A stretch of DNA of 64,000 nt. Origin: Alphaproteobacteria bacterium (lineage in GTDB: Bacteria; Pseudomonadota; Alphaproteobacteria; UBA6615). The translations under genes were made by a program, and so were the position numbers. Where the stretch lies: the NCBI GenBank assembly GCA_009691025.1, contig SHWB01000007.1, positions 28,231 to 92,230 of the forward strand, read 5' to 3'. Positions 20,122-40,251 of this stretch are shown in pieces; the first letter of the stretch is position 1, and each line of letters begins with the position of its first letter. The notes beneath the pieces were generated by a model. The model was not told the DNA's origin, did no database searches, and saw only the letters and a program-made list of their open reading frames with translations.

Positions 20122-20215
20122 GGTGGCGCCGCCGCTCGCCGGTCCGGCGGGTTGTCCTGGATCAATTCGCCGCCGGCGGGACGGCGTAGGCTTGCCATAA
20201 AGCGGGGACGGAACG

Positions 20216-22551: not shown

Positions 22552-22639
22552 TGCTTTCCGGGCGCAGTGGACTCTCTTGTGTGGCCGGGTCGCGCCCGGC
22601 TTTCTGGTGGTGCCGCTCGTATTCGGGCCGCCACTTGCC

Positions 22640-22885
22640 TTCTTGAGGCTTTGCCGTCCTACGAAACCCATCGACTGGCCAAAATTTTCGGCGCTTCTGT
22701 TATTGTTTCTATAGTAGCGTATCCATTAGTATTGTTTATGGGTGTTCCCCCGTTCTTTGTGCTGAAAGCATGCAAGAGAGATGGAATTTTAAGGTATTTT
22801 CTGACAGGATTAGATCTAGGTGCATGTTTTTTCTTCTTGATGGCGCGTGCTTCGATACCGGACTCCCCGCGTCCTTTCTTTCTCT
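22640..22885. other. Low-GC (about 40%) islet with small ORF(s) encoding a predicted 2-TM peptide
   Basis: Sharp composition drop relative to the roughly 65-70% GC flanks; ORF 22567..22887 (hydrophobic segments IVSIVAYPLVLFMGVPPFFVL, LGACFFFLMA) uses atypical codons. Confidence 0.3.
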
Positions 22886-23197
22886 AATGCAGCTTGGCGC
22901 TGGCGGCGCCTTGACCGCCGGGCTGTTCTGGCTGATCGCCGGGCCCGACGGCGTCGACGCTCGGCTCGGCAGTGACCGAGCACTTGCTTACGGCGACTTG
23001 CCGGAGGCGGCGCAGGGAAGCAAGGCTGGGTAGAGCCGCCGCACCTCTACCGTTGCGGTTCGACCACCACCGTGCCGATCTTGTCGCCGATTTCGACCAA
23101 CTCGTGCGCGGCGGCGCAGTCGGCGCGCGGGAAGCGCGCCGCCGCCTGCGGTTGACCTTTGTCGGCGGGCGCCGAACGATGCGCCACAGGAGATCGC

Positions 23198-23611
23198 ATG
23201 CCCCGCTTTTCGCTTGATTCGCAACTCGCCGCCAGTACCGTGCGGCTCGCGCGCTGGAAGCTGTCCGATGCGCTGCTGTCGACGGACGCGACCTATCCAT
23301 GGCTGATCCTCGTGCCGCGCCGGGCGGGGGTTGTCGAGCTGACCGACCTGCCATGGGCCGACGCAATGGCCCTGACGGCGGAGATCCGCCACGCGTCGCG
23401 GGCTCTGACGGAGCTGTTTGCGCCGAACAAGATCAACGTCGCGGCGATCGGCAATCAGGTCCGCCAGTTGCACGTCCATGTCGTCGCCCGCTTCCGCGAC
23501 GATCCGGCTTGGCCGCGGCCGATCTGGGGCGCAACGCCCAGCCGCGCCTACGATCCGGCCGAACTCGCACGGCGACGCAAGGTGCTGGTGCGCGCCCTCA
23601 CGCAGGATTGA
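23198..23611 (+). CDS. HIT-family (histidine triad) hydrolase
   Basis: HVHVV histidine-triad motif; AGGAG RBS before the ATG at 23198. Confidence 0.8.
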   Translation: MPRFSLDSQLAASTVRLARWKLSDALLSTDATYPWLILVPRRAGVVELTDLPWADAMALTAEIRHASRALTELFAPNKINVAAIGNQVRQLHVHVVARFRDDPAWPRPIWGATPSRAYDPAELARRRKVLVRALTQD

Positions 23612-23713
23612 CGGGCGCCGGCGCGCGCGAAGCTGCCGACGCTTCTACCTTCTCCGGCGGGGGCATGGACGGGGGCAGCGCGTCCGTTCGGACGTGGTGC
23701 GAGGTGCGGAGTC

Positions 23714-23993
23714 CATGGACGACTTCCTGACCGGCATTGCCCTGATCGTACTGGGCGCCTTCATGTTCGCGGTTAGCTTCCCCCGCGAGGCACGCCGCCA
23801 TCGCCTGCGCGAGCACCGACGCGAAGCGGCTGCCGCCTGGCGCGACAGTGCGCTGCGCGTCCTGCGCTTCGCCGCCGCCGCAATCGGCGTGATGCGGGCG
23901 CTGGACGGCATCGTCTTCGCCATCGCCGGCCTCTACGGCGTCGAACTGTTCGCCCACGCCCCCGGCTTGCCGCGGGGGAACGAGCCTGTATAG
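23714..23993 (+). CDS. Small hypothetical membrane protein
   Basis: 93-aa ORF with two predicted TM helices upstream of argG. Confidence 0.3.
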
Positions 23994-24050
23994 TCCGGCC
24001 GCGCGCGCCGGGCGGGGCCCGGGCGCAGGCGGAAGCGGCAGGACGACTCC

Positions 24051-25265
<1,215 letters not shown>

Positions 25266-25964
25266 TCACCCCGGCCAGGCCGGCACCCCGATGGCGTAGG
25301 GGTGCAGCCAGACGAGGATGACAGTGAGCGCCAGCGCCACCAGCGGCCGCCACCAGCCGATGCCGGACCAGTCCATGCGCGTGCGGCGCTCGGCCAGCGC
25401 GCGGAACGGCAGGATAGAGGTGGTCATCAGGATCGGCCCCCAGGAGGCGCCGAGGCGGACCTCTTTCTTGCGGTCGATATGGAACATGCCGGCGACGGCG
25501 AGGGCGGCGAGGCCGCCCATCATCACGATGCCCGCCAGGTCGCCGCGCGCCACGATATGCGCGCCGGCCCACAGCACCACGCTCCACAGGAAGGGGTGGC
25601 GGGTGACGCGGAAAATGCCCGGCGCCGGGTTCTGCGGCGAGATCATCGCCTCGCTGCCGGCAGGCAGGGTCGGCGAGGCGGTGGTGAAGGCGCAGACGGC
25701 CAGCAGCAGGGCCACCGGCATGATCGCGACCGGCACCCAGGCGAGCCCGCCGCCGCCCGGCCACAGGCCGACGAAGGGCGCATCGCGCCAGGCCGAGACC
25801 ATCCACACGAAGGTCGCCAGCGCGACGGCCGAATAGAGCAGCATGAAGCCGCGCTCGCCCAGCCGGGCCGCCAGCGGCGTGCGCAGCGGCGCCGAGGCCA
25901 GCAGGATATGCGTGGCCACGAAGGTGGCGGTGGCGGCGATGAGCGCGTCGAGCCCGGGCTGCAT
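25266..25964 (-). CDS. nnrU: NnrU-family membrane protein
   Basis: 232 aa, multi-TM, NnrU-like blocks (RHPFLWSVVLWAGAH). Confidence 0.7.
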   Translation of the reverse strand: MQPGLDALIAATATFVATHILLASAPLRTPLAARLGERGFMLLYSAVALATFVWMVSAWRDAPFVGLWPGGGGLAWVPVAIMPVALLLAVCAFTTASPTLPAGSEAMISPQNPAPGIFRVTRHPFLWSVVLWAGAHIVARGDLAGIVMMGGLAALAVAGMFHIDRKKEVRLGASWGPILMTTSILPFRALAERRTRMDWSGIGWWRPLVALALTVILVWLHPYAIGVPAWPG

Positions 25965-26099
25965 ACGCTGGCCTCCAGGTCAGGGCTCCTGTCTCGTCTT
26001 CTCGCTGGGCCGCGTCAAGCCCGGGCGAACCGACCGGTCGCCAGCGGCAGGGGCGCTTCGCCGGCTTTGCCTCCCCGCGATGACGGCGTATGAGAGGCC

Positions 26100-26387
26100 A
26101 TGACCGCCTACTAAGACAGGCTCGACCCCATCGCCCGCGCCATCATCGAGGCGCTTTCCGCGCGCCCGGCGGGCGCCTCGATCGCCGGCGAGGAGGTGGC
26201 GCAGGCTATCGCCGAGAAGCGCCGCCGCCCGGCCGACCCGCCCGATCTGTGGCGGCGCTTCCTGCCGGCGGTGCGCCAGCAGGCCCTGCATTTCGCGCGC
26301 GCCGGCCGCATCGAATTCCTGCGCAAGGGCAAGCCGGCCGACCCGGAAGCCGTCAGGGGCGCCGTGCGCTACCGGCTGGCGAGCTGA
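26100..26387 (+). pseudogene. DUF3253-family protein with an in-frame TAA at codon 5 (26112-26114)
   Basis: MTAY[TAA]DRLDPIARAIIEALSARPAGASIAGEEVAQAIA...[42 protein letters not shown]: the full DUF3253 domain is in one frame with ATG at 26100, and no canonical start exists between the stop and the conserved domain. Confidence 0.45.
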
Positions 26388-27283
26388 GCGGGCACGGCGA
26401 GGCCGCGCCGCCGGCACGCCGCCGTCACCGTATTGGCCAGCAGGCAGGCGATGGTCATCGGCCCGACACCGCCGGGCACCGGCGTGATGGCGCCGGCCAC
26501 CGCCTTCGCTTCCTCGAAGGCGACGTCGCCGACGAGGCGCGTGCCGTCCGGCTTCTCCGCCGTCGGCGCGGCGACGCGATTGATGCCAACATCGATGACC
26601 GTCGCGCCGGGTTTTACCCAATCGCCGCGGATCATTTCGGGGCGGCCGACGGCGGCGACGAGGATGTCGGAGGAGCGGCATCGCGCAGCGATATCGCGCG
26701 TGCGCGAATGCGCCACCGTGACCGTGCAATTCTCGCCGATGAGCAGCTGCGCCATCGGTCGTCCGACCAGCACCGAGCGGCCAACGACGACGGCGTCGGC
26801 GCCCGACAGATCACCCAGACGGTCCTTCAACAGCATCAGCGAGCCGAGCGGCGTGCAGGGCACGAGCGCCCTGTCCATGCTGCCGCTGGCCAGCAGCCCG
26901 GCATTGACGACGTGCAGCCCGTCGACGTCCTTGGCCGGGTCGATGGCGGCGATTACGCGGGTCTGGTCGAGGCCCTTCGGCAACGGCAACTGCACGAGGA
27001 TGCCGTCGACGGCGGGATCGGCATTGAGACGTGCGACCAGAGCCTCCAGCTCGGCCTGCGCCGTAGTCGCCGGCAGGCGATGGTCGAAATGCCCGAGCCC
27101 GGCCTGCTCGGCCGCCCGGCTCTTGCTGCGCACATAGACCTGCGAGGCGGGGTCCTCGCCGACCAGCACCACGGCGAGGCCGGGGACGACACCGTGCGCC
27201 GTCTTCAGTTCGGCCGCCGCCGCGCCGACGCGGGCGCGCAGCCCGTCGGCGAAGGCTTTGCCGTCGATGATCGCCGCAGTCAT
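26369..27283 (-). CDS. folD: Bifunctional methylenetetrahydrofolate dehydrogenase / methenyl-THF cyclohydrolase
   Basis: Full-length 304 aa with conserved FolD blocks. Confidence 0.9.
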
Positions 27284-27618
27284 GCGGATACCCCTTCTGC
27301 GTGGGTGAGCCAGGCTTCCAGCCGGGCTGCGAGCGATGACGGATCGCCCGAAACGGTGACGGCCCGGAGCCGGCCGCTTGTGCCCAACGTGACGGCGAGG
27401 GCGGATTTCGGTACGTCACAGGCGGCGGCGAGTAGCGCCAGCACGGCGGCATTGGCCGCGCCCTCGGCCGGCGGCGCCGTCACGGCGACGCGGAGGGCCG
27501 GCACGTCGGGCAGGGCTATGGTGCCGCCGGCACCGGCGCGACGGGCGCGCGGCGTCACCCGCACGCGCACGGCGAGGCCTTCGCGCACCGGCCGCCAGGG
27601 CCGCTCAGATGGGGCCAT
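27280..27618 (-). CDS. DUF167 (YggU-like) protein
   Basis: [13 protein letters not shown]...[19 protein letters not shown] pattern typical of DUF167; overlaps folD start and yggT end. Confidence 0.65.
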
Positions 27619-27886
27619 ACTCGCGCAGCAGGCTGCGCAGCAGCCAGATCGCCAGTAGCAGGACCAGCGGCGAGATGTCGACGCCGCCGATCGACGGCAC
27701 GACTTGCCGGATCGGCCGCAGCAGCGGCTCGGTGATGCGGTAGAGGAAGTCACCGACGACATAGACGATGCGGTTCGACGTGTTGAGCACGTTGAACTGC
27801 ACCAGCCAAGTCAGCACGACCGAGATGATCAGGGCCCAAGTGTAGAGCTCGAGCACGATGTCGATCAGCAGAAACAGCGATTGCAT
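27605..27886 (-). CDS. yggT: YggT-family membrane protein
   Basis: About 93 aa, two TM helices, conserved YggT C-terminal region. Confidence 0.7.
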   Translation of the reverse strand: MQSLFLLIDIVLELYTWALIISVVLTWLVQFNVLNTSNRIVYVVGDFLYRITEPLLRPIRQVVPSIGGVDISPLVLLLAIWLLRSLLREYGPI

Positions 27887-28018
27887 CGGCGGCTCGGCTC
27901 CCCGCGGCAGGCGGCGCGAGACTAGCCCCCGCCGCGCGGCCAAGTCCAGCGAAGGGGGCGGGCATGGGACCCCTTTCCCCCCGACGGGCGGAGAGGGCTA
28001 TCTCGCCCCGCCCCGCGC

Positions 28019-28047
28019 CTTGACAGCGCGGGGGGCCATCAACAATA
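28019..28047 (+). promoter_or_regulatory. Candidate sigma70-type promoter for tRNA-Ala (TTGACA-17 nt-CAATAT)
   Basis: Consensus -35 hexamer at 28019-28024 and a -10-like hexamer 17 nt downstream, about 50 nt upstream of the tRNA. Confidence 0.3.
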
Positions 28048-28098
28048 TCCGCCGTCCCGACGCCGGGGGCCGATGGTGCCCGCCGGTCTGGCCACGGT

Positions 28099-28174
28099 GG
28101 GGCCGTAGCTCAGTTGGGAGAGCGCCTCGTTCGCAATGAGGAGGTCAGGGGTTCGATTCCCCTCGGCTCCACCA
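28099..28174 (+). tRNA. tRNA-Ala (anticodon CGC)
   Basis: Cloverleaf with GGGGCCG acceptor stem, G3:U70 alanine identity pair, anticodon loop tTCGCAa, TPsiC arm GGTTCGATTCC, encoded CCA. Confidence 0.9.
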
Positions 28175-28209
28175 CTCTCTTTCATGACATTCGCACAGAA
28201 TTGACGGAG

Positions 28210-28229
28210 CCGGCGGAAGCCGCCGGTTT
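28210..28229 (+). terminator. Hairpin (CCGGCGG-aag-CCGCCGG) followed by a short T tract downstream of tRNA-Ala
   Basis: Perfect 7-bp GC stem with a 3-nt loop and TTT; a second longer inverted repeat lies at 28272-28319. Confidence 0.3.
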
Positions 28230-28369
28230 CCGCCACTTTCGCGCCCGCTTTCAGGGCAAACCTTGGCAGAGACGCCGCTGATCGGTGGCTGAAGCCGCCT
28301 TTTGGGGCCGGCGTCTCTGTAGCCCCTTTTCCGCAGCCAACACTTCGCCATGACTGTCTGTAACCCCTC

Positions 28370-28900
28370 TCAGGCAAAGCCGAGCAGGCGGCGCTGATCG
28401 GCCCAGAGGGCCGGCAGATCAGGCCCACGCTTGAGCGCGGAGACCGTGAGTTCGACCGGCTGCCGGCCGGCCAGGATCGCCTCGACGATGTCGGGGGCGA
28501 GGAAGGCCAGCGGGAGGATACGGCTCGCATCTCCATGGTCGATGCCATGGCGCCGCGCGAGATCGCGGATCGAGGCTACCGCGCCATCCTTGATCTCCCC
28601 GAACCAGGCGTGCGCCTGGGCGGTCAGGGAGATGAGTCGACCGTCGGGCGTTGGCGGCTGTCCCTTGCCAGGGATGACCAGTTTCGTTTCGGCGCCGCGG
28701 CGCCGGGTGGAGATCGGACACTCGATCGCCAACGAAACGGTGGTTGCGGTGGCCGACCTCTCCTGCACCTGTTCGCCCTCTACACGGAGCTTCGCCCGAA
28801 GGCGGCCTCGGCGGACCGTGATGCGGAGATGCTGCTCGTCTGGCCCGAGCTCAAGGCGAAGCCGGCCGGGAGAGGGTGCACCGAGCCGCCATCTGCCAAG
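28370..28900 (-). pseudogene. Remnant (C-terminal portion) of a serine-recombinase-family protein adjacent to tRNA-Ala
   Basis: C-terminal tail ...[49 protein letters not shown] resembles a conserved tail of resolvase/recombinase proteins of alphaproteobacterial mobile elements; no catalytic N-terminal domain recognisable. Confidence 0.35.
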
Positions 28901-29637
28901 TTCCCGACGCCGTCCGGCGACGAGCCAGATCAGATCCGGAAACCGACGAAGCCACGGCATGGCATCTGGCCGCCCGCACGCGGCCTCGTACTGCGCAAGT
29001 TCGCGAAGGATCATCCGATCCCATTGTGGCAGCCAGACTTCCCCGCAGCACTGACCGATCCTGCCGGCACGCGCGATTCGCGCTTCACGATCGAGGCCAC
29101 AGCAGTCGCCGTCTGCGCAGGGCCGACGGCCTACGGTGCTCGCCGGCCGTAGCACAGCCGGCAAAACCACACGACGCAGGATCTGAACCTCGCCCATTGG
29201 CTCCTGCTGCCGCTGTGCGAGGACGAAGAAGAGCTTGAACTGACACTGCGTGTCGCGCGCCACCGGGCAAGCCGGCTTGTCACCGAGGACCGGGCGCAGT
29301 TGTGCATTGCGAGGTTGGCAAAGGTCCTGCTGGACCGACGATGCCTCTCCAAAGCGGAACTTGAATGCTGGCTCGACGCCGCAGTCTGCAGACCCCGGAA
29401 AACACGGCCTATGGCTCGGCCCCACCGGGTTCCGCCCCTCAAGTGCTACGAGCTACATCGAGGCTGACCAGCCTGAACGGTCTCACCTTCCGAACGAGCG
29501 TCCTGCGGCCCATTGCATGCGGGTTCGCAGAGGGATCAAATGCTCATCAAACAGGCCTCCAGCGCCCGCTGCCTCGCCTGACTTCGGCCTCGATTGGGGA
29601 AGCCTTGGACCAGACACTGAACGCACCGGCGCCGGCG

Positions 29638-30831
29638 ATGCCGACCTCTTATGCCGACATCAAGCGCGCCGCCGAGGCGCTGGTGCCGCTGATCGAGGCC
29701 GAGGCCGACGAGGCCGAGCGCCAGTACCACCAGTCCGACAAGGTGGTCGACGCCTTCCGCAAGGACGGTATCTACACGATGCTCGGACCGCGCGGGAACG
29801 GCGGCGCCGAGCTGGCCTATGTCGATGCCATGCGCATCGCCGAGCGCCTGTGCCACGCTGACGGCTCGACCGGCTGGTGCGCCATGGTGATGAACGTGCA
29901 CGCCGCCTCGGCGGGCGCCTTCCTGCCACAGGCCGGCATTGACATCGTCTACCCCAACGGCGCCGACGTGCTGGTGGCCGGCCAGGGCGTGCCGCGCGGT
30001 TACGCGCGCGCCGTCGATGGCGGCTACCAGGTGAAGGGCCTGTGGAGCTACGGCAGCGGCATCTGGCACGCCGAATGGGTGCATTCCGGCTGCTTCGTCA
30101 TGGACGGCGAGATGATGCGGCGCGACGCGCATGGCCGCCCGGTCGTCGTCGTCGTGCATCACCCGATGGCCGACGCCGAGCTCAAGGGCAACTGGGACGT
30201 CCTCGGCCTGCGCGGCACCGGCAGCTACGACTACGCCATCAAGGGCGGCGGCGAGATCTTTATCCCGCACCACCTCTGCTACTGGGGCGAAAACCCGCCG
30301 GTCGAGCGCGGTGGCGTGCAATATGCCGGCGGCTTCGTAGCCATGGCCAACTGGGGCCATACGAGCTGGGCCATGGGCATGGGCCGCCGCGTGCTCGACG
30401 AGCTGGCGGCCAATGCGCGCGCCCGCACCGACGTGTTCGGGCCGCTGCACAAGAGCACCACCTTCCGCGCCCAGTTTGCCGAGGCCGAGGCCAAGTACCG
30501 CGCCGGCCGGGCGCTGACCTACGAGTCCTGGGAAGACCTCTGCGAGAGCTTCGCCCAGGGCAAGTCGGCGACGGTGGAACAGTTCGCGCTGATCCGGCTC
30601 GCCATGCGCCACATGCACGATGTCATCTCGGAGATCGCGACCTTTGCTCATCGCGCCTCGCGCGGCGCGAGCCTGCGGCCCTGCCGCCTGCAACGCGCCT
30701 ACCGCGACATCCACTCCGGCACGCAGCACATCCTGATGGCCGACGAAATCTACGCCGAGTGCGGCCACGCGCTGCTCGGCACGCTCGGGCCCAACGCCAA
30801 GTGGACACTGCTCGGCCTGACGGACGATTAA
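29638..30831 (+). CDS. Acyl-CoA dehydrogenase-like flavin-dependent monooxygenase/oxidoreductase (ACAD type 2 family)
   Basis: About 397 aa with ACAD-fold blocks (GWCAMVMNVH, LRGTGSYDY); ATG at 29638. Confidence 0.65.
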   Translation: MPTSYADIKRAAEALVPLIEAEADEAERQYHQSDKVVDAFRKDGIYTMLGPRGNGGAELAYVDAMRIAERLCHADGSTGWCAMVMNVHAASAGAFLPQAGIDIVYPNGADVLVAGQGVPRGYARAVDGGYQVKGLWSYGSGIWHAEWVHSGCFVMDGEMMRRDAHGRPVVVVVHHPMADAELKGNWDVLGLRGTGSYDYAIKGGGEIFIPHHLCYWGENPPVERGGVQYAGGFVAMANWGHTSWAMGMGRRVLDELAANARARTDVFGPLHKSTTFRAQFAEAEAKYRAGRALTYESWEDLCESFAQGKSATVEQFALIRLAMRHMHDVISEIATFAHRASRGASLRPCRLQRAYRDIHSGTQHILMADEIYAECGHALLGTLGPNAKWTLLGLTDD

Positions 30832-31446
30832 CGCTTACGTCGGCAGCACCGCACGCTCCCGCCGGAGAGAAGCTCACCGGTGGGCTGGCTGGCGAGTGAA
30901 CGGCGAACGACGATGCGACCGGTGCCGTGGGAGCCATTGGTTCCGCGCGCGTTCAGCTGTTGCGGCTCGACGCCGACATCCCGCGATCGATCAAGGGGGA
31001 GGGCCGTGCCAGAGACCTCCGTTACGCTCTTCGGAGACCTCTCCAAACCTGCCAGCACACTGGCCGAGAAAATCCTGGAGGCATTGGGCGCGTGTCTTGG
31101 CCACGGCAGCTACAGCGTGTTGCTGCAGCCGACGCCGGTGTCACGGAAGTCAGGGCCACGGCAGAAGCGGCTGCGAGGCTCATTCTCAAGCGAGCCGAGA
31201 TCGAGGCGGACGATCTTACGCTTCGCTCGTCCCACTTTCGTGCCGCCGGCGAAACTGCCCGTCCCGGGGGCGACGCACAACTCGGCAGCGCCCGGTGTCC
31301 GCGCGCCACGGCGTCTGCTCAGCCTCAAGGTCTTGATCTGCATACGAAAAGCGCACGGGTGAGGCCGGGTGGACGGCGGTTACTGGCGCTCTCTGTCCTG
31401 ATGTGCCGTCTGCCTGTTCGCTGTCGGCCAAGCCCCGCTCGACGGG

Positions 31447-31585
31447 AGGAAATACCCTGTTTTGGGCGTTTGAATTCCCTGTTCCTGGTCCTAGGGAATT
31501 CGGCCCGAAACCGCAGTGTTATCCGTGGGTTGTACCGGGGCAATTCGCCTCTGATGGCCCGAAGGCAAAGGAATTCCCTGTTCCT
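31447..31585. repeat. Iteron-like direct repeats GAATTCCCTGTTCC (2 perfect copies plus degenerate copies) in a lower-GC non-coding stretch
   Basis: Perfect 14-mers at 31473-31486 and 31571-31584; degenerate AATACCCTGTT at 31451 and GGAATTCGGCC at 31494. Confidence 0.4.
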
Positions 31586-31731
31586 TCGCCGGAGTACCGA
31601 CTGCTCTCAACGGAGACGGGTTAGCTCCTGCCTCTCAGCACCACCAATTCCTTGCCCGCCCGCGCGCGGATCGGCTGCCGCAAACCCTGTTTGCCGGGCC
31701 CCCGGTCGTTCGGCGGGGCAAGGCGGCCCGC

Positions 31732-32604
31732 TCAGGCGGGCCGGCCCGGTTCCGGCGGCGGGGTGAAGATCATGTCGCGCCGCACGGCGTCGAGATCGGC
31801 GCAGCCCAGCATGGCCTGGGCGTTGGCCAGCTCGTCGCGCAGCAGGCCGGCGGCGCGCGCCGCGCCGGCCTTGCCGCCGGCCGAGACGCCATAGAGGAAG
31901 GCGCGGCCGGCGAAGCAGAAATCGACGCCGAGCGCGATGGCCTTCAGGATGTCGGAGCCGCGCCGTATGCCGCCGCCGAAGAGCAGCGGCCGGGCCTCCG
32001 GCACCGCCTGCCGCACCTCGCACAAGCTGTCGATGCTGGCGGGCATGAAGTCCAGCCGGTTGCCGCCGTGGTTCGACACGACGACCGCGTCGGCGCCAGC
32101 CGGCAGGCCGTCGCCACGTCTCCGGGGGCGAAGCAGGCCCTTGATCACCAGCTTGCCGCGCCAGTGCGCGCGGATGCTCTCCATGTCGCTCCACACCAGG
32201 GTGGGCGGCCACACGGTGGCGAAGAAGCGCAGGATGTCCGTCGGCGAGCTGCCGGGCGGCGCATAGGGCTGCCAGCTCTCCGCCGCCGGCATCCCGCCAT
32301 TGGCGAGGAAGCGGCACAGCCAGTCCTGGTGGCTCAGCAAATTGGTGAAGATTCCCGGCCATTTGCGCCAGTCGATCCCGCCGCGCAGCGACACGCCGGT
32401 GCGCAGCGGCACCTCGCTGCGGTTGGCCACCGGGTAGTTCACCGCGACGGCCAGCACCTCGACTCCGGCATTGCGCGCCTGCGCCATCATCCCCTCGGTG
32501 ATGGCGTGGGCCTTCGCCGGATAGATCTAGCTCAAGACCTGCCCGGGCGCGATGCGGGCAACGGTCTCGCTCGCCGCCTCCGACATCACCGGCTTACGCC
32601 CGCG
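31732..32604 (-). pseudogene. FMN-dependent alpha-hydroxy acid dehydrogenase (LldD/glycolate oxidase family), N-terminally truncated with an in-frame TAG at 32527-32529
   Basis: C-terminal 252 aa carry VVVSNHGGNRLD and the FMN-binding end; homology continues upstream in frame across the TAG (...IAPGQVLS[TAG]IYPAKAHAITEGMMAQARNAGVEVLAVAVN) and is then lost in the low-GC insert at about 32600. Confidence 0.5.
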
Positions 32605-32709
32605 TTAATTGGTGGCGCCCTTACCGTAATCCGCATTTAGGGTGCTTTCCAACGCCATAAAGAGTATTTGCAGCGCTTCAATTATTAGGTCTTTTACTCT
32701 TTCTCGGTA

Positions 32710-32982
32710 TTATTGCACTTTAGCGTCTTTTCTTTCTAGGACATCCGCAGACCAATGTGTTCTCTCATTTCCAATCGAAAGATCATCGACCTCACTCGCC
32801 ACACCTATGAATACATCCAGAACATCGTCGGGCAAACACGCTAACCCGCCACGGATATCTGCCAAATCTTGACACGCAAGCAGTAAGTCTTGCTCTCCGG
32901 CAAGAGCGCGTTCTGCAATCTGTCTTGTAAGCGCCAGCATCACGGGATTGCTTCCGCAATGGGCATTCATGAGGGGCCTCAC
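32710..32982 (-). CDS. Small ORF (90 aa) of foreign composition inside a low-GC islet; function unknown
   Basis: About 50% GC with A/T-ending codons atypical for this genome; abuts the LLM gene stop; no recognisable domain. Confidence 0.3.
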   Translation of the reverse strand: MRPLMNAHCGSNPVMLALTRQIAERALAGEQDLLLACQDLADIRGGLACLPDDVLDVFIGVASEVDDLSIGNERTHWSADVLERKDAKVQ

Positions 32983-32983
32983 C

Positions 32984-34213
32984 CTACCCCACCGCCTCCG
33001 GCATCACCGGCGCGATCTCCTTCAGGCGTGGCAGGACCTCCTTGCCGAACAGGCGGATGCTCTTCTCGGACTCGGCATGCGTCATGAAGCCGGTCCGGCC
33101 GACCATGGTGAGGTGGCCGAAGCCGCCGACGGCCTCGTGGAAGCGCTCGACCTGGGCGACGACGCTGTTGGGGTTGCCGGCGAACATGATGCCCTGCGCC
33201 ATCGCCTGCTCGACGGTGATCGAGGTCAGCTTTGCGGCGTTGCGCTCGGCCGAGGCGACGCCCTTCTCGGCGTTGACAAGGCTCGGAGCGTCGGCGGCGC
33301 CATTCGGCCGCGTGCGCCAGCCCGGGCCGGCGATGCGCGGCGGCGCCACGCCGGGCATCAGATGCGCCATCTGCGGCCCTGTCTTGAGGCTGGTGTTGAG
33401 GAACCAGAGCTGCTTCTCGCCGCCCGCCTGCCCCTCCGCGTCGGTGTCGCCGACATGGACGAAGGCGCTGTAGGCAAAATGGTCGCTCGCCACCGGCGGC
33501 ATTCCGGCCTCGGCGCGCGCGGCGCGGTAGGCGGCATAGGCGCGCCGCGTGCCGTCGATGCCGCGCAGCACCAGAGTGTGCACCATGCCGCGCCGTCCGA
33601 CCTCGGCGGCGGTGTGCGGATCGCCCGTCGCCGCCCACATGCGGATGCGCTCCTGCCACGGGCGCGGCCAGATGTTCACATGGCGGTGGGTGAAGTGCTT
33701 GCCCTCCCAGGAGAACGGGCCGTCCTGGTGGGTCAGCGCCTTGCCGATCAGGTCGATCGCCTCCCAGTAGCGCTCGACATTGCCGACCGGGTTGGCGTTG
33801 GCCGAGGCGAATTCGCTGCCGCCAGACTTGACGAAGCCGATCTCCAGCCGGCCGTGCGAGATGACGTCGGCGGTGGCGTATTCCTCGGCCACGCGCACCG
33901 GCTCGCGGCGCAGCGATATGAGCGTGCCGAGGCTGAGGATGCGCGCCTTGCGCGTCTGCCGCGCGAGGATGCCGACCATCATCGGGTTGGAGCCGATCAA
34001 CGAGTTGATGCCGGCATGGTGCTCGGTGACGCCGATGTTCACGCCCAGATCGTCGCACAGCAGATACTCGTCGATCGTCTCGGCGAACAGGTTGGCGGCG
34101 ACACGCGGGTCGCACCAGCGGTTGGGCAGGCTCGCGCGCACCGCTTCGGCGGAATCGAGTACGCCCTTCTCCACATAGGGATACGGCACCTCGCACTGCC
34201 ACCACGCATCCAT
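32984..34213 (-). CDS. LLM-class (luciferase-like) flavin-dependent oxidoreductase
   Basis: 409 aa with LLM blocks (GVTEHH, TIM-barrel pattern). Confidence 0.75.
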   Translation of the reverse strand: MDAWWQCEVPYPYVEKGVLDSAEAVRASLPNRWCDPRVAANLFAETIDEYLLCDDLGVNIGVTEHHAGINSLIGSNPMMVGILARQTRKARILSLGTLISLRREPVRVAEEYATADVISHGRLEIGFVKSGGSEFASANANPVGNVERYWEAIDLIGKALTHQDGPFSWEGKHFTHRHVNIWPRPWQERIRMWAATGDPHTAAEVGRRGMVHTLVLRGIDGTRRAYAAYRAARAEAGMPPVASDHFAYSAFVHVGDTDAEGQAGGEKQLWFLNTSLKTGPQMAHLMPGVAPPRIAGPGWRTRPNGAADAPSLVNAEKGVASAERNAAKLTSITVEQAMAQGIMFAGNPNSVVAQVERFHEAVGGFGHLTMVGRTGFMTHAESEKSIRLFGKEVLPRLKEIAPVMPEAVG

Positions 34214-34243
34214 CGTCGAATCTCCCTGTACAGGCGGGGCAGG

Positions 34244-35038
34244 TCAGCGTGCGAGGAAATCGAGGATCCGGACGGCCAGCGCATCCGGCCGCTCGATCTC
34301 CGGGTGATGCCCGGCGCCCTCGATCAGCTCGAAGCGCGCGCCGGGGATGAGAGCCGCGTAGCCGCGCCCGTAACCGGGCGCGACGATGCGGTCTCTCTCG
34401 CCCCACAGCACCAGCGTCGGCACCGCGATGTGGCCGAGCCAGCGCGCCAGGCGCGGATTGTACATGTAGGGCTCCCATCCATAGAGGCAGAGCGCGTCGC
34501 GGTCGCGCGCATGCCGCGTCAGCGCCTCGTCCGGCAGCGCGTCGAAATCTGGCGCGTTGCGCTCGGGGTCGTGCCAGCTCCGCCGTCGCACCGTGTTGGG
34601 GTGGGTGTTGAAGATGTCGAGGATGTCGGCCGTCTCGCGGTCGCCGAGCTTGATGCCGAGCGCGTCGACGAGCACGAGGCGGTCGAGACGGCGCGAGCAG
34701 GAGACGGCGATCTCGGCGGCGAGCCAGCCGCCGAACGAGGCGCCGACGAGCGTCACCTTGTCGTCCGGCAGCCCGTCGATGAAGGCGCGGTAGAGATGGA
34801 CGAGGTCGTAGACGGTCTCGAAATCGCCGGGCCGCGGCGACCCGCCGAAGCCCGGATGCGACGGCGCCAGCACCGCACCTGCCGTCGCCAGGCGTTCGAG
34901 AAAGCGCGCGTCCGGCGCGAGCGGGTGGAAGCCATGCAGGAACAGGATGGCGCGGCCGCTGCCGCCCCGCACGATTTCGAGGTCGCAATCGCCGACCTTC
35001 GCCCGGTCGACGCGCGGCGACGACACCCCGGCCATCAC
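34244..35038 (-). CDS. Alpha/beta-fold hydrolase
   Basis: LFLHGF, nucleophile elbow GASFGG, C-terminal His region. Confidence 0.8.
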   Translation of the reverse strand: MMAGVSSPRVDRAKVGDCDLEIVRGGSGRAILFLHGFHPLAPDARFLERLATAGAVLAPSHPGFGGSPRPGDFETVYDLVHLYRAFIDGLPDDKVTLVGASFGGWLAAEIAVSCSRRLDRLVLVDALGIKLGDRETADILDIFNTHPNTVRRRSWHDPERNAPDFDALPDEALTRHARDRDALCLYGWEPYMYNPRLARWLGHIAVPTLVLWGERDRIVAPGYGRGYAALIPGARFELIEGAGHHPEIERPDALAVRILDFLAR

Positions 35039-35156
35039 TTCCTCCCTGTCGACCGCCGGACCACCGTTTCAGGGACCGCGACCGGATCGATTATCGCTTG
35101 GCGCCGATTTGGGCATATTCACCGCACCGGGTTCAACCGGGGCGGCTCGCGGACGA

Positions 35157-36920
35157 TCAGGCCAGGATCAGCCCCGCCTCGACGGCACGAATCTGCAAGG
35201 CCAGAACTTTCGAGTATATGCGGCACTGGGCGAAGCTGCCGGCGATGAACCACAGGCCGGGCTGGCCGGTGCGCGTCCACATGGCGGCGAGCTCCTGGCG
35301 CGCCTCGTCGAAGCCCCAGATGGGGCCGACCCGTTCGGCGACCGCCTCGCCGAACAGCTTGCGGACCAGCGCCTCCTGCCCCCTGAAGCCGGTCGCCAAC
35401 ACGATCAGGTCAGCCGGCAGCAGCGTGCCGTCGCGCAGCCGCGCGCCGTCGGCGACGATGCGGTTGATGTCGGCGAACTGGACGAGGCCGACCTTGCCAT
35501 CGACGATCAACTCGGAGCAGCCGACGTTGAAGTAGTAGCCGCCGCCGCGCGTCAGGTACAGGAACTGCCAGCCGGTGCCGTCGGGGCCGAAATCGAGCCG
35601 GAAGCCGGCGCGTTCGAGGCCGTCGAGCAGCTCCCGGTCGATCTCGCGCGCCCGCGCCGTCAGCAGGCGATGCGCCTCGCGCAGAGGCGCCAGCGGCATG
35701 GCGGCGGCGAGCAGGTCGCAATCGGCGAGGTCCGGCCCTTCCTCGTAGAGCGCGTAGGGCAGCTGCGCGCTCGGCTCGATGTTGACCACCATCGTCGGGC
35801 TGCGCTGCGCCATGGTGACGTCGGCGCCGGCCGCGTGCAGGTCCTGCGCGATGTCGTGGCCGCTGGTGCCGGTGCCGATCACCAGAGCGCGCCGTCCGGC
35901 CCAGGCCGTGCCGTCGCGCCACTCGCCCGAGTGCAGCACGGTGCCGGCGAAATCGGCGAGGCCGGCGATCGCCGGGCGGGCGGGAATGCCGCTGACGCCG
36001 GTCGCCATGACGATGTGGCGCGGCCGCACGCGCCGCTCGGTACCGTCGGCCCGCCGCAGCATCGCCGTCCACCGGCCTGCCGCCGCGTCGTAGCCGGCGC
36101 CGGCCAGTCCGGTATCGGTCCAGACGTTCAGCTCCATCGCCTCGGCATAGCCCTCGAACCAGAAGGCCAGCATGTCCTTGGGAATCCAGGTCGGCCAGCC
36201 CGGCGGGAACGGCATGTAGGGCAGGTGGTTGACGTGCACCTGGTTATGCAGCGTCAGCGCGTGGTAGCGGTGGCGCCAGTTGTCGCCGACGCGCGCGTTG
36301 CGCTCGACCGCCAGCGTGTCCACGCCCAGCATCCGCAGCCGCGCGGCGATGGACAGCCCAGCCTGCCCGGCGCCGACGACGAGGACGTCAGGATCGCGGT
36401 CGGCATAGGCCGCTGCCGCCCGACGCCGGTCGAGCCAGTTGGGCCCGCGAAAGTCGCGCGAATACGCCGAGCCGGATGGTCGCGCGCCGCCAACGGCCTC
36501 GGGGAAATCGTCGAGTGCGGCGAGCGCGGTGAGCAGGGTCCACGCCTTCGCCGGCGCCGCGGCGTCGCCGGGCAGGAGCTGGACGACACCTTCGCCCGTG
36601 CCGGTGGCGGTGCGGAAGCGGAAGATCGCCTCGATGGTGTCGGTGCCGGCGCGGCTGACGCGACGGGGCGGGGTGCGGCCGGGCGTCACCTCGAAGGCCC
36701 GGGCGGCGAGCCGGCGGTCATCGGCGAGTGCCGAGGCGATGGCGCCGGCGCCGCTGACCGTCGCTACCCGCCAGCTCAGCGCCAGCAGGTCGCGCCAGTG
36801 CGCATCCGGCACGAACAGCGCGGCGAGGGCGGATCCGCCGCCACCGGCGAGCGCCGCCTCGAAGCCGGCGAGCCAGCGCTCCACGGCCGCAACAGGCGTT
36901 CCGCTTGCCCCGTCCAGCAT
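35157..36920 (-). CDS. Flavin-containing monooxygenase (FMO / Baeyer-Villiger-type, FAD/NAD(P)-binding) with an N-terminal SnoaL/NTF2-like extension
   Basis: GAGQAGL FAD motif, GTGTSGHD NADP motif, ATG(F/Y) block LATGFRG. Confidence 0.7.
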   Translation of the reverse strand: MLDGASGTPVAAVERWLAGFEAALAGGGGSALAALFVPDAHWRDLLALSWRVATVSGAGAIASALADDRRLAARAFEVTPGRTPPRRVSRAGTDTIEAIFRFRTATGTGEGVVQLLPGDAAAPAKAWTLLTALAALDDFPEAVGGARPSGSAYSRDFRGPNWLDRRRAAAAYADRDPDVLVVGAGQAGLSIAARLRMLGVDTLAVERNARVGDNWRHRYHALTLHNQVHVNHLPYMPFPPGWPTWIPKDMLAFWFEGYAEAMELNVWTDTGLAGAGYDAAAGRWTAMLRRADGTERRVRPRHIVMATGVSGIPARPAIAGLADFAGTVLHSGEWRDGTAWAGRRALVIGTGTSGHDIAQDLHAAGADVTMAQRSPTMVVNIEPSAQLPYALYEEGPDLADCDLLAAAMPLAPLREAHRLLTARAREIDRELLDGLERAGFRLDFGPDGTGWQFLYLTRGGGYYFNVGCSELIVDGKVGLVQFADINRIVADGARLRDGTLLPADLIVLATGFRGQEALVRKLFGEAVAERVGPIWGFDEARQELAAMWTRTGQPGLWFIAGSFAQCRIYSKVLALQIRAVEAGLILA

Positions 36921-37238
36921 CGGTGTCTCCTACGGATGTCCCCGGGTGTAGAAGAGGTGAAAATTGCAACCTCTCAATGGGAGGTCAATGGCCGCGATAT
37001 GCCATCGACGTGACATGTTAACCATTCGTTAGGCAGACCGGTGCGACACTGGCCTCGTCGGTGGTCGCCCCCATCGAGCGACGACCGGCCGGCGAGCCTC
37101 CTCCCGGCTCCGACCGTTCCTGCCTCCCCTGTCGTTCGCGAGCCGCTCCGCCCCACCCGGGTCGGGGCGGTTCCGTTTTGCGGCCCTGTTGCGCTGCGGT
37201 AAGGTCCGCGGCCCATTCCATCGCCTGCGAGGCCCGTC

Positions 37239-38542
37239 ATGGTCGACCCGCGGCATTTTCGCTTCCAGACCTTGGCGCTGCATGCCGGCCAGCAGCCGGA
37301 TCCTGTGACGGGTGCGCGCGCCCAGCCGATCTACCAGACCACCTCCTACGTCTTTCCCGATGTTGACCACGCGGCGAGCCTGTTCAATCTCGAACGGCCG
37401 GGCCACATCTACAGCCGCATCTCCAACCCTACTGTCGCCGTGTTCGAGGAACGGGTGGCGGCACTCGAAGGCGGCGTTGGCGCGGTGGCGACGGCGAGCG
37501 GCCACGCGGCGCTCGTGCTCGCCGTCACGACGCTGATGGGCACCGGCGGGCACATCGTGGCCTCGCGTGCCCTCTATGGTGGAAGCCACAATCTGTTCGG
37601 CCACACCCTGCCGCGCTTCGGCATCACGACGACGCTGGTCGATCCGCGCAAGCCGGAGGATTTCGCTGCGGCGATCCAGCCCGAGACGCGGCTGGTCTTC
37701 GCCGAGACCATCGGCAATCCCGGCCTCAAAGTGCTCGACATAGCCGCGGTGGCGAAAGTGGCGCACGGCGCAGGATTGCCGCTGCTGGTCGATGCGACCT
37801 TCACGACGCCGGCGCTGCTGCGCCCGTTCGAGCACGGCGCCGACCTGATCCTGCATTCGGCGACGAAATGGATCGGCGGCCACGGCGTTGCCATCGGCGG
37901 CGTGCTGGTCGATGGCGGCCGCTTCGATTGGGAGGCGTCGGGCAAATTCCCCACGCTGACCGAGCCCTATGCCGGCTATCACGGCCTCGACTTCGCCGAG
38001 GAGTTCGGGCCGGCCGCCTTCGTCATGCGCGCCCGCGCCGAGGGTCTGCGCGATTTCGTCGCCTGCATGGCGCCGCAGACCGCCTTCTATCTGCTGCAGG
38101 GGCTGGAGACGCTGCCGTTGCGCATGGCGCGCCACGTCGCCAATGCGCGCTCCGTGGCGACTTTCCTCGAACGCGCCGAGGAGGTGGCGTGGGTAGCGTG
38201 GCCCGACCTCGAAAGCCACCCGGACCACGCGCTGGCTCAGCGCCTGCTGCCCGACGGGCCGTGCTCTATCGTCACCTTCGGCATCCGGCCGGGCAAGGCC
38301 GGCGCGCGCGCGCCGGCGCGAAGTTCATCGAGGAGCTCGGCCTGTTCTCCCACCTCGCTAATGTCGGCGACGGCAAGTCGCTGGTCATCCACCCGGCGAG
38401 CACGACGCACCAGCAGATGAGCGCCGACGACCTCGCCCGCGCCGGCGTCGGCGAGGAACTGATCCGCCTGTCGATCGGCCTCGAACACGAGGACGATCTG
38501 ATCGACGATCTGCGCCAGGCGCTGCGCGCCTCGCAGCGGTGA
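37239..38542 (+). pseudogene. metY: O-acetylhomoserine aminocarboxypropyltransferase (sulfhydrylase) with a frameshift in a (GC)n run near 38300-38312
   Basis: PLP-enzyme blocks intact through ...[17 protein letters not shown] in frame 0, then continue ...[35 protein letters not shown] in frame 2 (ORF 37868..38542); the shift lies in ggcgcgcgcgcgccggcgcg. Confidence 0.7.
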
Positions 38543-38594
38543 GACGGAATGAAACGGATCGCGCACGGCCAGCGCTTCCCCCACCTCTGCCCAA

Positions 38595-38677
38595 CCCTCT
38601 CCACCCCCCGGGGCGGAGAGGGGACAGCTTGGTCATTGCGACCGCGTGCCCTCTCCGCCCTTGATGGCGGAGAGGGA
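38595..38677. repeat. Two tandem GC-rich hairpins of the CCCTCTCC...GGAGAGGG family (REP/terminator-like)
   Basis: CCCTCTCC-acccccggggc-GGAGAGGG at 38595-38623 and CCCTCTCCGCC-cttgat-GGCGGAGAGGG at 38649-38677, between metY and the hydrolase gene. Confidence 0.5.
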
Positions 38678-38745
38678 CAGGGTGAGGTGGGTGCTGCCGC
38701 CATACCGGTCGCATCGGCTTCGTGCCGGTTCGGGAGAACGTAATC

Positions 38746-39547
38746 ATGCAGATCACGCCCGGCGGGCGCCGCGTCTTCATCCATACCGGAGGAAAGCCCA
38801 TAGATGCCGGCAATCCGGCCCTAGTGCTGGTGCACGGCGCCGGCACCGACCACACTTTCTGGGCGATGCAGGCGCGCTTCTTCGCGCATCACGGCTTCAG
38901 CGTGCTGGTGCCAGATTTGCCAGGCCACGGCCGCTCCGCTGGTCCGGCGGAGACGACCATCCCGGCGCTCGCCGACTGGCTGTGGCGCACCCTCGACGTG
39001 ATCGGCTCGGCGAAGGTGGCGCTGGCCGGCCATTCGATGGGCTCGCTCGTGGCACTCGCCGCGGCGGCCGCCGTGCCGGACCGCGTGACGGCGCTGGTAC
39101 TGGTTGGCAGCGCGCCGAAGATCGCCGTGCACGCCGATCTGATCGCCGCCGCGAAGGTCGACACGCCTCTCGCCATCGAGCTGATCACCGAATGGGGCTT
39201 CGGCCGCGCCGCGCGGCTGGGCGGACACACCGCGCCGGGAATGTGGATGACCGGCGGCGGAAAGCGCCTGATCGCCGCCGCGCCGCCGGGCGCGCTCGCC
39301 GCCGACCTCGTCGCCTGCGATATCTGGGAGGGCGGGCCGGCGGCGGCGGCGAAGATCGCCTGCCCGACGCTGCTGATCGCCGGCGGCGACGACCGCATGA
39401 CGCCCCCGCGCATCGGCGAGACACTGGTGAAATCAATCGCCGGCGCGCTCATGGAAGTGTTTCCCGACACCGGGCACATGATCATGGTCGAGGGGGACCA
39501 ACGAGACCACCGATTCGATCCACCGTTTTCTTGCGAGCGTGCGATGA
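38746..39547 (+). pseudogene. Alpha/beta-fold hydrolase with a probable frameshift in a G5 run (about 39492-39496)
   Basis: GHSMGS nucleophile elbow; the ORF reads through into the thioesterase frame; removing one G restores a plausible C-terminus ...MIMVEGTNETTDSIHRFLASVR ending in TGA overlapping the thioesterase ATG (ATGA). Confidence 0.5.
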
Positions 39548-40251
39548 CCGACGATGCCAAGGCCGAGCGCAATCTGCGCCGCGCCGATTACCGTCACTTC
39601 CTCGCCGTGCCGACGCGCTGGATGGACACCGACGTCTATGGCCACGTCAACAACGTCACCTACTATTCCTACTTCGACACGGTGGTGAACGAGTTCCTCG
39701 TGCGCTTCACCGGGCTCGACTTCCGGGCGAAGGGGCCGGTAGGCATGGTCGGCGAGACCGGCTGCCGCTTCCACAGCGAGATCGCCTTTCCCGATGTGCT
39801 CGAGTCGGGTCTGCGCGTGCGCCGGCTGGGCAAGACCTCGGTGACCTACGAGATCGGCATCTTCAAGGCCGGCCGCCAGGCACCGGCGGCGACCGGCCAT
39901 TTCACCCATGCCTATGTCGTACCCGGCGACATGCGCGCTGTGCCGGTGCCCGAAGCCGCCCGGGCCGTGCCGGAAACGCTAGTGGTTACGGGGTGGCGCC
40001 GCCTTTGCCTCCCCCGCTGCGCGGGGGAAAGATTCATATGCTTCGGCGCAGCGGCACCAGCAGGCCGGCGGCGAAGAGGGTGGCGGCGGCGACGACGATG
40101 GACGGTCCGGTCGGCGTGTCCCAGGCGAAGGAGAAGGCGAGGCCCATCGCCACGGAGAGCGAACCGACGAGCGCCGCGAGGATCGCCATCGCCTCCGGCG
40201 TGGCGGCGAGGCGGCGCGCGGCGGCGGCCGGCACGATCAGAAGTGACGTGA
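39544..40251 (+). CDS. 4HBT/YbgC-like acyl-CoA thioesterase; no stop at the expected C-terminus, the ORF runs about 240 nt into the convergent znuB
   Basis: Hot-dog thioesterase motif WMDTDVYGHVNNVTYYSYFD; the domain ends near ...PVPEAARAV (about 39975) but the frame stays open over Arg-rich antisense of znuB. Confidence 0.5.
   Translation: MTDDAKAERNLRRADYRHFLAVPTRWMDTDVYGHVNNVTYYSYFDTVVNEFLVRFTGLDFRAKGPVGMVGETGCRFHSEIAFPDVLESGLRVRRLGKTSVTYEIGIFKAGRQAPAATGHFTHAYVVPGDMRAVPVPEAARAVPETLVVTGWRRLCLPRCAGERFICFGAAAPAGRRRRGWRRRRRWTVRSACPRRRRRRGPSPRRANRRAPRGSPSPPAWRRGGARRRPARSEVT

Follow-up and report, generated by a model that had tools for sequence, protein, structure and literature searches.

A degraded element behind a tRNA-Ala(CGC) gene and a family of large serine recombinases that may target tRNA genes

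Introduction

What occupies the interval between a tRNA-Ala(CGC) gene and metY in an alphaproteobacterium of the lineage UBA6615, and did it arrive as one mobile element? The stretch in which we address this question comprises 64,000 nucleotides (hereafter the window; positions 28,231 to 92,230 of contig SHWB01000007.1, assembly GCA_009691025.1). On the left, the genes argG, NnrU, DUF3253, folD, DUF167 and yggT lead up to the tRNA gene. Beyond it follow a recombinase open reading frame (ORF), an acyl-CoA dehydrogenase (ACAD)-like gene, ~0.8 kb without genes, an lldD-like gene, 0.4 kb of low-GC DNA, a cluster for a luciferase-like monooxygenase (LLM), a hydrolase and a flavin monooxygenase-like (FMO-like) protein, and then metY. 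Many Alphaproteobacteria share the arrangement folD-yggT-tRNA-Ala(CGC), and the DNA 3' of the tRNA gene is different in each genome that we examined.

An original prediction, made from the letters of the window, had read this interval as a single degraded integrative island. Nearly all of its descriptive points stand. Here we find that the 3' end of the tRNA gene indeed borders a degraded element with a serine-recombinase fragment, but that this element spans 3.47 kb (28175–31646; island A) rather than 9 kb, its distal end appearing to lie at 31602–31646. The interval as a whole is likely the product of three structural events that took place independently at a variable locus, not of one island. 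The recombinase fragment raises a second question, namely which kind of enzyme inserted the element; integration into tRNA genes with restoration of the gene is thought typical of tyrosine integrases.

Results

A close relative preserves the empty site

We called genes in the window, whose GC content is ~70%, by codon-position GC, and searched for close relatives with its FolD protein. Relatives at 89–96% amino-acid identity provided two or three usable, metagenome-derived loci with context. Two of these are long contigs, one from a JGI metagenome (L085) and one from a metagenome-assembled genome (MAG) at NCBI (L084), and both were reverse-complemented and aligned to the window with blastn. 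More distant loci (FolD at most 71% identical among the matches listed in the genome collection) keep folD-yggT-tRNA-Ala and are too distant for an empty-site test. The window itself matches a contig of metagenome assembly ENA ERZ1305449, and positions 31081–35051 are 100% identical in an independent Logan assembly (L003).

The tRNA-Ala(CGC) sequence is identical in the window, L084 and L085. L085, with a FolD 93% identical and ~88% nucleotide identity overall, aligns to the window up to position 28174, exactly the final base of the tRNA, and resumes at 31722, so that window positions 28175–31721 are absent from it. In their place, the stop codon of an intact lldD gene (419 amino acids) lies 28 bp from the tRNA. 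Homology with L084 also ends at 28174/28175, and this relative keeps the native ATTTCC flank behind the tRNA. Against L085, the window thus differs in three ways: an insertion of ~3.5 kb after the tRNA, a 4.4-kb replacement of ~0.5 kb, and a missing 4.9-kb block. The empty-site test that had been proposed for the locus is therefore positive, and the predicted housekeeping genes stand on both sides, with folD/DUF167/yggT on the left and metY on the right.

Upon inspection of the right-hand breakpoint, we noticed a decayed copy of the tRNA end. The terminal sequence of the tRNA gene, CCCCTCGGCTCCACCA, has a 13/16 copy, CCTCTCAGCACCACCA, on the same strand at 31631–31646. This copy is followed by ATTCC, where the tRNA of L085 is followed by ATTTCC, and a flank of the form (A/T)TTTCC(C)G also follows the tRNA in L084 and in two further relatives (L011 and L070). 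In a global alignment, 31602–31669 is colinear with the 3' half of the L085 tRNA from the anticodon arm on, plus its native flank. Because it lies at the synteny break and shares this flank, we assign 31602–31646 as the putative attR of island A, which, judging from the alignment, appears to be the displaced original 3' half of the tRNA gene; the 3' half of the intact gene was presumably supplied by the element. The locus thereby shows features of the Islander signature, namely an intact tRNA at one boundary, a direct-orientation 3' fragment at the other and an empty site in a relative.

Could 28175–31646 instead be ancestral DNA that was deleted in the lineage of L085, with the likeness at 31631–31646 due to chance? 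A similarity score that is marginal when taken alone, the small number of relatives and the nearly host-like GC content of island A would allow it. Such a deletion, however, would need a left end that coincides to the base with the end of the tRNA and a right end directly behind a tRNA-end-like sequence sharing the ATT(T)CC flank. The native flank directly follows the tRNA not only in L084 but also in more distant relatives, and the segment holds a fragment of a mobile-element recombinase in its canonical position. We consider the deletion very unlikely and take island A to be an insertion.

Even harder to credit is the proposal of one degraded island of ~9 kb (28175–37114) whose cargo would be the oxygenase, lldD, LLM, hydrolase and FMO genes and whose end would be an attR at 37098–37114. 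The listed genes are all present, core genes bracket the interval and the region varies among relatives. Yet lldD is intact beside the tRNA in L085, and the window copy is its orthologue, with 83% nucleotide identity. The proposed attR falls within 37005–37175, a conserved stretch of ancestral DNA that is 79% identical to L085 intergenic DNA; it mismatches the tRNA 3' end at 5 of 16 positions, and 75 sites on the plus strand of the window match at least as well. The match at 37098–37114 is no better than chance and is not an att site, and a better candidate with the native flank exists at 31602–31646. The lldD part of the interval thus appears to be ancestral core, the proposed attR fails to align to the tRNA 3' end, and we give the single island hardly any probability.

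The recombinase gene is a dead 3' stump

The first ORF of island A lies on the minus strand, has 351 codons and finds homologues for its C-terminal part only. Its last ~160 residues are 50–58% identical to the C-termini of ~560-amino-acid proteins with PF00239 and PF07508 domains (E-values 1e-44 to 1e-28), which bears out the predicted C-terminal remnant of a serine recombinase. In tblastn searches, residues ~404–565 of the full-length homologues map to 28373–28858, and one homologue stretches the match to residue 362, at 28966. The fragment also matches the PHROG family phrog_14161 ('recombinase', 7e-28). The N-terminal part including the resolvase catalytic domain was not found in any frame of the whole window (tblastn), and the window ORF has no Pfam match to the PF07508 recombinase domain. 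Because only the C-terminus is found in any frame, the gene is a dead 3' stump from which both the catalytic and the recombinase domain are missing.

In a structural model built from 36 sequences (pLDDT 86), a helical domain comes after a small β unit. The structures that resemble this helical domain most, on weak matches, are the DNA-binding domains of ParB/Noc/Spo0J (Foldseek probability 0.98, E-value 0.27); the extra C-terminal domain of this recombinase family may be ParB/Noc-like. The same domain also occurs as a separate gene of ~90–125 amino acids on plasmids of Eleftheria terrae (L002) and Bradyrhizobium ottawaense (L001). In Eleftheria it directly follows a gene for a 470-amino-acid recombinase and a DUF2924 gene. 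The domain can therefore split off naturally.

Intact homologues lie next to tRNA genes

The genomic contexts of intact homologues provide insight into how the stump relates to the tRNA. An alphaproteobacterial MAG (L091; WHUA01000001.1, GCA_009377445.1) encodes an intact 558-amino-acid homologue, P0031, that is 53–54% identical to the window fragment (tblastn). Its gene comes after those for DUF3489 and DUF2924, and 206 bp separate its end from the 3' end of a tRNA-Ala(CGC) gene, beyond which lie yggT-DUF167-folD-DUF3253-NnrU-argG. L091 and the window therefore share the locus, the convergent orientation and a near-equal spacing (206 versus 195 bp), with FolD proteins at most 71% identical among the matches listed. 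No tyrosine integrase is encoded in the 10 kb inside the L091 element. The closest homologue, P0001 on L093, is 57–58% identical to the fragment. It follows genes for a ParB-methyltransferase, DUF5681, the large terminase, DUF3489 and DUF2924, and a tRNA-Ala-type 3' end lies 206 bp past its stop codon. The blastn homology between window and L093 runs from the recombinase gene on into 28305–28369, that is into the arm between recombinase and tRNA.

This arrangement recurs with other tRNAs. The recombinase family is abundant in IMG/VR, and in six loci ARAGORN identified full tRNA genes (Ala, Met, Asp, Ser) that are convergent with the recombinase gene and lie 175–470 bp downstream of it; in a seventh, a tRNA-Gln lies ~950 bp from the recombinase gene. 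Among the 62 loci with at least 250 bp of sequence downstream of the recombinase gene, 19 contain a T-loop-to-CCA motif on the opposite strand downstream, in 15 cases 159–267 bp after the stop codon. The control counts are 3/62 for the same strand downstream, and 3/68 and 1/68 upstream. Several contigs carry only a tRNA fragment, which begins at the anticodon stem-loop and is embedded in otherwise shared phage DNA, as is expected of an attP that restores its target. All of these contexts suggest a little-described clade of serine integrases that target tRNA genes. The homologues have a PF00239 domain with an invariant S14 in the motif YTRKS, and a PF07508 domain. Compared with what we take to be the canonical integrase pattern, the family consensus has a zinc-ribbon region without the usual cysteines.

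The recurrent spacing in L091 and L093, the tRNA genes on viral contigs, the enrichment of the motif and the phage-borne fragments are the reasons why we consider the serine recombinase to be probably the integrase of island A. The competing possibility is that a tyrosine integrase, since lost, integrated the element, that the serine-recombinase fragment is cargo or a nested insertion, and that two 15-nt repeats near the distal end of island A are arm-type sites. In its favour, tyrosine integrases are the enzymes classically associated with tRNA and tmRNA genes as targets, an island with such an integrase is found at the same tRNA in Microvirga, and the repeats adjoin attR. Against this, the orientation of the remnant and its ~200-bp spacing are those of L091 and L093, many viral contigs show this spacing with other tRNAs, and the element in L091 encodes no tyrosine integrase in the 10 kb covered. 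Serine-recombinase islands at tmRNA genes are moreover documented (PMC3146451; AcaML1). We judge a lost tyrosine integrase unlikely and keep the serine recombinase as the probable integrator.

We note several points that weigh against an element of this kind at the tRNA. The similarity at attR is weak by itself, with a local score of P~0.05 for a 150-bp neighbourhood. The GC content of island A deviates mildly (66.7% versus 69.5–70.3%; window 69.5%), and its ACAD-like gene, host-like in composition and without relatives in related elements, may not be cargo. The two 15-nt repeats beside attR would be in keeping with a tyrosine-integrase element, as its arm-type sites. Next to the intact recombinases, no second copy of the tRNA end was found within the DNA available, nor any intact element with both ends. 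Lastly, close relatives are few and all metagenomic, and the polarity of the replacement and of the missing block rests on parsimony.

Contents of island A

Between the tRNA and the recombinase stop codon, two stable hairpins lie at about 28212–28234 and 28266–28320 (fold z-scores −3.0 and −2.6). They had been described as terminator-like; the hairpins are there, but a consensus terminator scan called neither of them because their T-runs are weak. Upstream of the stump, 28967–29637 shows no homology, and the portion of the ORF that covers it has no Pfam or PHROG match. A scan of the window with Rfam returned no riboswitch or RNA family other than tRNA. Phage-gene remnants were not found elsewhere in island A, either with tblastx and blastn against related elements or with Pfam and PHROG searches of its ORFs.

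The predicted ACAD-like oxygenase is indeed encoded here. Its ORF opens at 29365, with the likely start at 29638. The product shows weak matches of the HsaA/HpaH type, including an HsaA-like NCBIfam match over 4–360/383 that is far below the cut-off. The gene has a host-like codon composition, with GC at third codon positions of ~0.9, and is absent at this site in L085. We found no close relatives in viral contigs and none in related elements, and on plasmids only remote ones (at most 37% identity). The gene may be either cargo of the island or a later arrival.

Near the distal end, the exact 15-mer GAATTCCCTGTTCCT occurs twice, at 31472–31486 and 31571–31585, 99 bp apart and with the second copy 16 bp before attR. 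A partial copy of GAATTCCCTGTTCCT at ~31452 and an inverted GGGAATTC at 31494 also lie just inside island A beside attR. The original prediction had called this region (31447–31585) iteron-like. The two exact repeats and the partial and inverted pieces are real, but there is no regular array and no rep gene at the repeats, and they do not qualify as iterons in the sense of three or more regularly spaced 17–22-bp repeats near a rep gene or an AT-rich origin. In the viral contigs of IMG/VR, the 15-mer GAATTCCCTGTTCCT occurs at chance level; a single IMG/VR locus contains both it and a homologue of the recombinase, and there the 15-mer lies inside coding DNA.

A separate, probable replacement truncated an ancestral lldD-like gene

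Next to island A, the lldD-like gene has lost ~115 N-terminal codons, and an in-frame TAG replaces the Gln of a WxQLY motif. Because the gene is intact in L085, 28 bp from the tRNA, we read it, from this comparison, as apparently ancestral content that is a pseudogene in the window. The original prediction was right that the gene is truncated and adjoins a low-GC piece, but it is not island cargo.

The DNA that replaced its 5' end (replacement B, ~32586–37004) is separate from island A. Homology with L085 decays at ~32575–32590, and the first 0.4 kb (32586–32983) has a GC content of 49.5% compared with 69.5% in the window. This piece, which gave no DNA match on plasmids, contains a small ORF of 90 amino acids located just past the LLM stop codon. 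A foreign small ORF had been predicted here; it is real, low in GC and a member of a protein family, but is better read on the minus strand at 32710–32982, where codon position 3 is the AT-richest. The family consists of conserved small proteins, typically of 105–115 amino acids, in 93 representative clusters, and no Pfam, NCBIfam or PHROG profile matches them. In one relative, the protein forms a fusion with an RHS repeat that precedes it, a hint of a polymorphic-toxin or immunity context.

The LLM, hydrolase and FMO genes are present as predicted, but they belong to the replacement that truncated lldD and not to the cargo of the tRNA island; nothing links the cluster to the tRNA or to the recombinase. 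In 80 soil-metagenome loci, most keep the hydrolase-LLM pair (~60–78% identity) without an FMO gene beside it, and the pair is a widespread chromosomal module. Full-length homologues of the FMO-like protein (~50% identity) are encoded on Rhizobium, Cupriavidus and Rhodococcus plasmids. The operon itself has 71% GC, so the trailing 0.4 kb alone is compositionally foreign. At the ends of replacement B we found no recombinase, transposase or repeats.

To the right of replacement B, ancestral intergenic DNA leads to the junction at which the third difference lies. In L085 and in L254, a 4.9-kb block with genes for a histidine kinase, a DUF4154 protein and a TonB-dependent receptor adjoins metY, and this block is absent from the window. 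The coordinates of all features are collected in Table 1.

A tRNA-like stretch at 36972–37008 (anticodon to T arm), at the right edge of replacement B, was also considered as an att site and rejected. Its local score (14) is the highest in the window, yet 60% of shuffles over 36 kb reach this score, and it partly aligns to ancestral L085 DNA. The likeness is probably due to chance, and may otherwise be an older att remnant.

Table 1. Features between the left flank and metY, with positions in the window, aligned positions in the reverse-complemented relative L085, and the evidence for each assignment.
Feature	Window	Strand	L085	Evidence or remark
Left flank, alignment stops at last base of tRNA	23184–28174		6814–11779	blastn
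tRNA-Ala(CGC), intact	28099–28174	+		ARAGORN; Rfam 67.7 bits; attL side of island A
Element arm, 195 bp, tRNA end to recombinase stop, two hairpins	28175–28369			spacing matches 206 bp in L091 and L093
Large serine recombinase, 3' remnant	28370–28966	-		residues ~362/404–565 of ~560; 50–58% identity
Unassignable DNA in island A	28967–29637			frame plot: poor codon-position signal
ACAD-fold, group-D-type flavin-dependent oxygenase gene	29638–30831	+		Pfam Acyl-CoA_dh_2, _N, _1; apparently intact
Non-coding or decayed DNA of island A	30832–31601			ORFs without Pfam or PHROG match
Putative decayed copy of tRNA-Ala 3' half, attR side	31602–31646	+		colinear with L085 tRNA 3' half and flank
Native tRNA downstream flank, 57 bp extra relative to L085	31647–31721			global alignment
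3' two-thirds of lldD, alignment	31722–32573		11798–12649	blastn
lldD-like FMN-dependent dehydrogenase pseudogene	31722–32585	-		Pfam FMN_dh positions 116–348 of 350
Left junction of replacement B, low-GC DNA	32586–32709			decay of L085 homology
Low-GC 90-amino-acid ORF	32710–32982	-		codon position 3 AT-richest
Luciferase-like monooxygenase (LLM class)	32984–34213	-		Pfam Bac_luciferase, 2.7e-32
Alpha/beta-fold hydrolase	34244–35038	-		Pfam Abhydrolase_6, Abhydrolase_1
FMO-like NAD(P)/FAD oxidoreductase, 587 amino acids, ~170-amino-acid N-terminal extension	35157–36920	-		Pfam FMO-like, Pyr_redox_2/3
FMO operon upstream region, right junction of replacement B	36921–37004			alignment with L085
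Intergenic DNA upstream of lldD, alignment	37002–37175		13178–13361	blastn
Ancestral intergenic DNA, homologous to L085 upstream of lldD	37005–37175			blastn, 79% identity; hairpin 37140–37173
Junction where 4.9-kb block is absent	37176–37196			comparison with relatives
metY onward, alignment	37197–39855		18257–20915	blastn
metY (O-acetylhomoserine sulfhydrylase)	37239–38420	+		Pfam, NCBIfam; 95% amino-acid identity to L085

A possible sequence of events

The breakpoints, the homologies and the pseudogene state are direct observations, from which the order of events, the crossover position and the role of the serine recombinase are inferred. Taken in the order that we think most plausible, the three events would have unfolded as follows. 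In the first, a phage-like integrative element with a large serine recombinase, whose relatives lie in a DUF3489/DUF2924 operon, would have integrated into the tRNA-Ala(CGC) gene beside yggT-folD, with the crossover probably at or near the anticodon stem-loop. Its attP would have brought a replacement 3' half for the tRNA, leaving the gene intact at attL and moving the original half to attR. Internal deletions would then have removed nearly all of the element. The presumed leftovers are the 195-bp arm, the last ~160–200 codons of the recombinase, the ACAD-like gene of uncertain origin, the DNA with the 15-nt repeats and the mutated tRNA half. This remnant is no longer mobile.

In the second event, the FMO/hydrolase/LLM operon and the low-GC ORF would have replaced ~0.5 kb, taking away the 5' end of lldD and promoter-proximal DNA; the lldD-like gene would have decayed further afterwards. 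The third event would be the deletion of the kinase/DUF4154/TonB-receptor block before metY.

Discussion

Island A itself is an ordinary dead remnant, and the lead of wider interest is the clade to which its recombinase belongs. We tentatively propose, at a confidence somewhat short of even, that this clade comprises widespread, essentially undescribed large serine integrases of phages. They would have their attB sites within tRNA genes (Ala-CGC, Met, Asp, Ser and possibly Gln), with a crossover at the anticodon stem-loop and an attP that carries a ~45-nt replacement 3' half; their genes would lie in a DUF3489/DUF2924 operon, and the proteins would have a cysteine-less zinc ribbon and maybe a ParB-like C-terminal domain.

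How does island A compare with known systems? Like the tRNA-gene islands catalogued by Islander and TIGER, it is bounded by an intact tRNA and a direct-orientation 3' fragment, has a recombinase gene, here its 3' part, just inside attL, is missing from a close relative and has decayed to a 'grounded' remnant. In contrast to these, the recombinase of island A is of the serine and not of the tyrosine family, only 3.5 kb are left, the catalytic part is gone and the tRNA fragment is heavily mutated. The Islander authors (2015) stated that tRNA-gene restoring integration was unknown for serine integrases. We found no paper on tRNA targeting by the present recombinase clade, and the TIGER catalogue may already hold such islands. 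DUF2924 and DUF3489 are nearly absent in the literature, with DUF2924 appearing in Wolbachia papers only.

A further parallel is provided by the ssrA islands of Dehalococcoides, in which the serine recombinase DsiB lies by attL and the boundary is marked by a 20-bp repeat (McMurdie et al. 2011, PMC3146451). In common with island A, these islands have a large serine recombinase gene on the reverse strand beside attL of a tRNA-like gene, supply that gene with a new 3' end, leave a direct repeat of it at the far boundary and occupy a hot spot of strain variation. The Dehalococcoides islands differ in their tmRNA target (T-loop, 20-bp repeat), their host phylum (Chloroflexi), their CcrB-like integrase and a second small recombinase, DsiA. 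Island A, by contrast, involves a tRNA-Ala(CGC) in an alphaproteobacterium, a ~45-nt fragment that starts at the anticodon arm and, in its intact relatives, DUF3489/DUF2924 partners.

Among recombinases of cultured or named phages, the nearest to P0031 are those of Acidithiobacillus AcaML1 (55% identity over the N-terminal 350 amino acids), Ralstonia YO134_1 (44%) and Wolbachia WO (33–35%). The attB of AcaML1 is listed as 'srrA', with 10-bp repeats (PMC3826726), which we read as the tmRNA gene ssrA. None of these three recombinases is reported to target a tRNA gene, and their identity to the window fragment is limited. The canonical serine integrases of phiC31, Bxb1, TP901-1 and A118 share with the homologues an N-terminal resolvase domain with the catalytic serine, PF07508 and a phage context, whereas the clade has the extra C-terminal helical domain, ParB/Noc-like on weak fold matches. 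To our knowledge, the canonical enzymes integrate at protein-coding or intergenic sites and restore no tRNA.

For annotation, the interval from tRNA-Ala to metY is best split into three parts: a short defunct element, the pseudogene of an ancestral gene, and an unrelated replacement that brought in an operon. The oxygenase and hydrolase genes should accordingly not be taken for a co-transferred pathway. If experiments bear it out, the clade would provide the serine-integrase toolbox with attB sites that are compact, conserved and ubiquitous, and the working assumption on which island-finding software rests, that islands in tRNA genes imply tyrosine integrases, would need correction.

Additional observations

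The tRNA-Ala(CGC) at the yggT-folD locus has been used elsewhere. In Microvirga massiliensis (L049, 1514–9232), two full copies of the tRNA 7.6 kb apart enclose a tRNA-adjacent gene for a 343-amino-acid tyrosine integrase and a small resolvase gene. This island is independent of island A and uses the same target. Among close relatives, metagenome contigs often terminate at or near tRNA-Ala. Five short ones with folD and yggT (L086–L090) all end ~0–220 bp from it, L086 at the position that matches the anticodon, which fits population-level variation at the site and could be coincidence.

Outside the interval, a second low-GC spot (down to 56%) lies at 22533–23183, at another synteny break relative to L084 and L085. 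A ~100-bp piece of these relatives overlaps the end of their match to the window near ~21500 (about 21480–21500), and also matches 5153–5250 in inverted orientation at ~80% identity, as a small dispersed repeat might. On the other side, metY (37239–38560) has a 1-bp deletion relative to L085 in a (GC)n run near 38312, which yields 393 amino acids and a 41-amino-acid tail instead of 434 amino acids, and the ORF at 38746–40062 (439 amino acids) fuses two genes of L085, for an alpha/beta hydrolase and a 4HBT thioesterase. Both reading-frame anomalies fall within 2 kb, and either indels from assembly or genuine decay could account for them.

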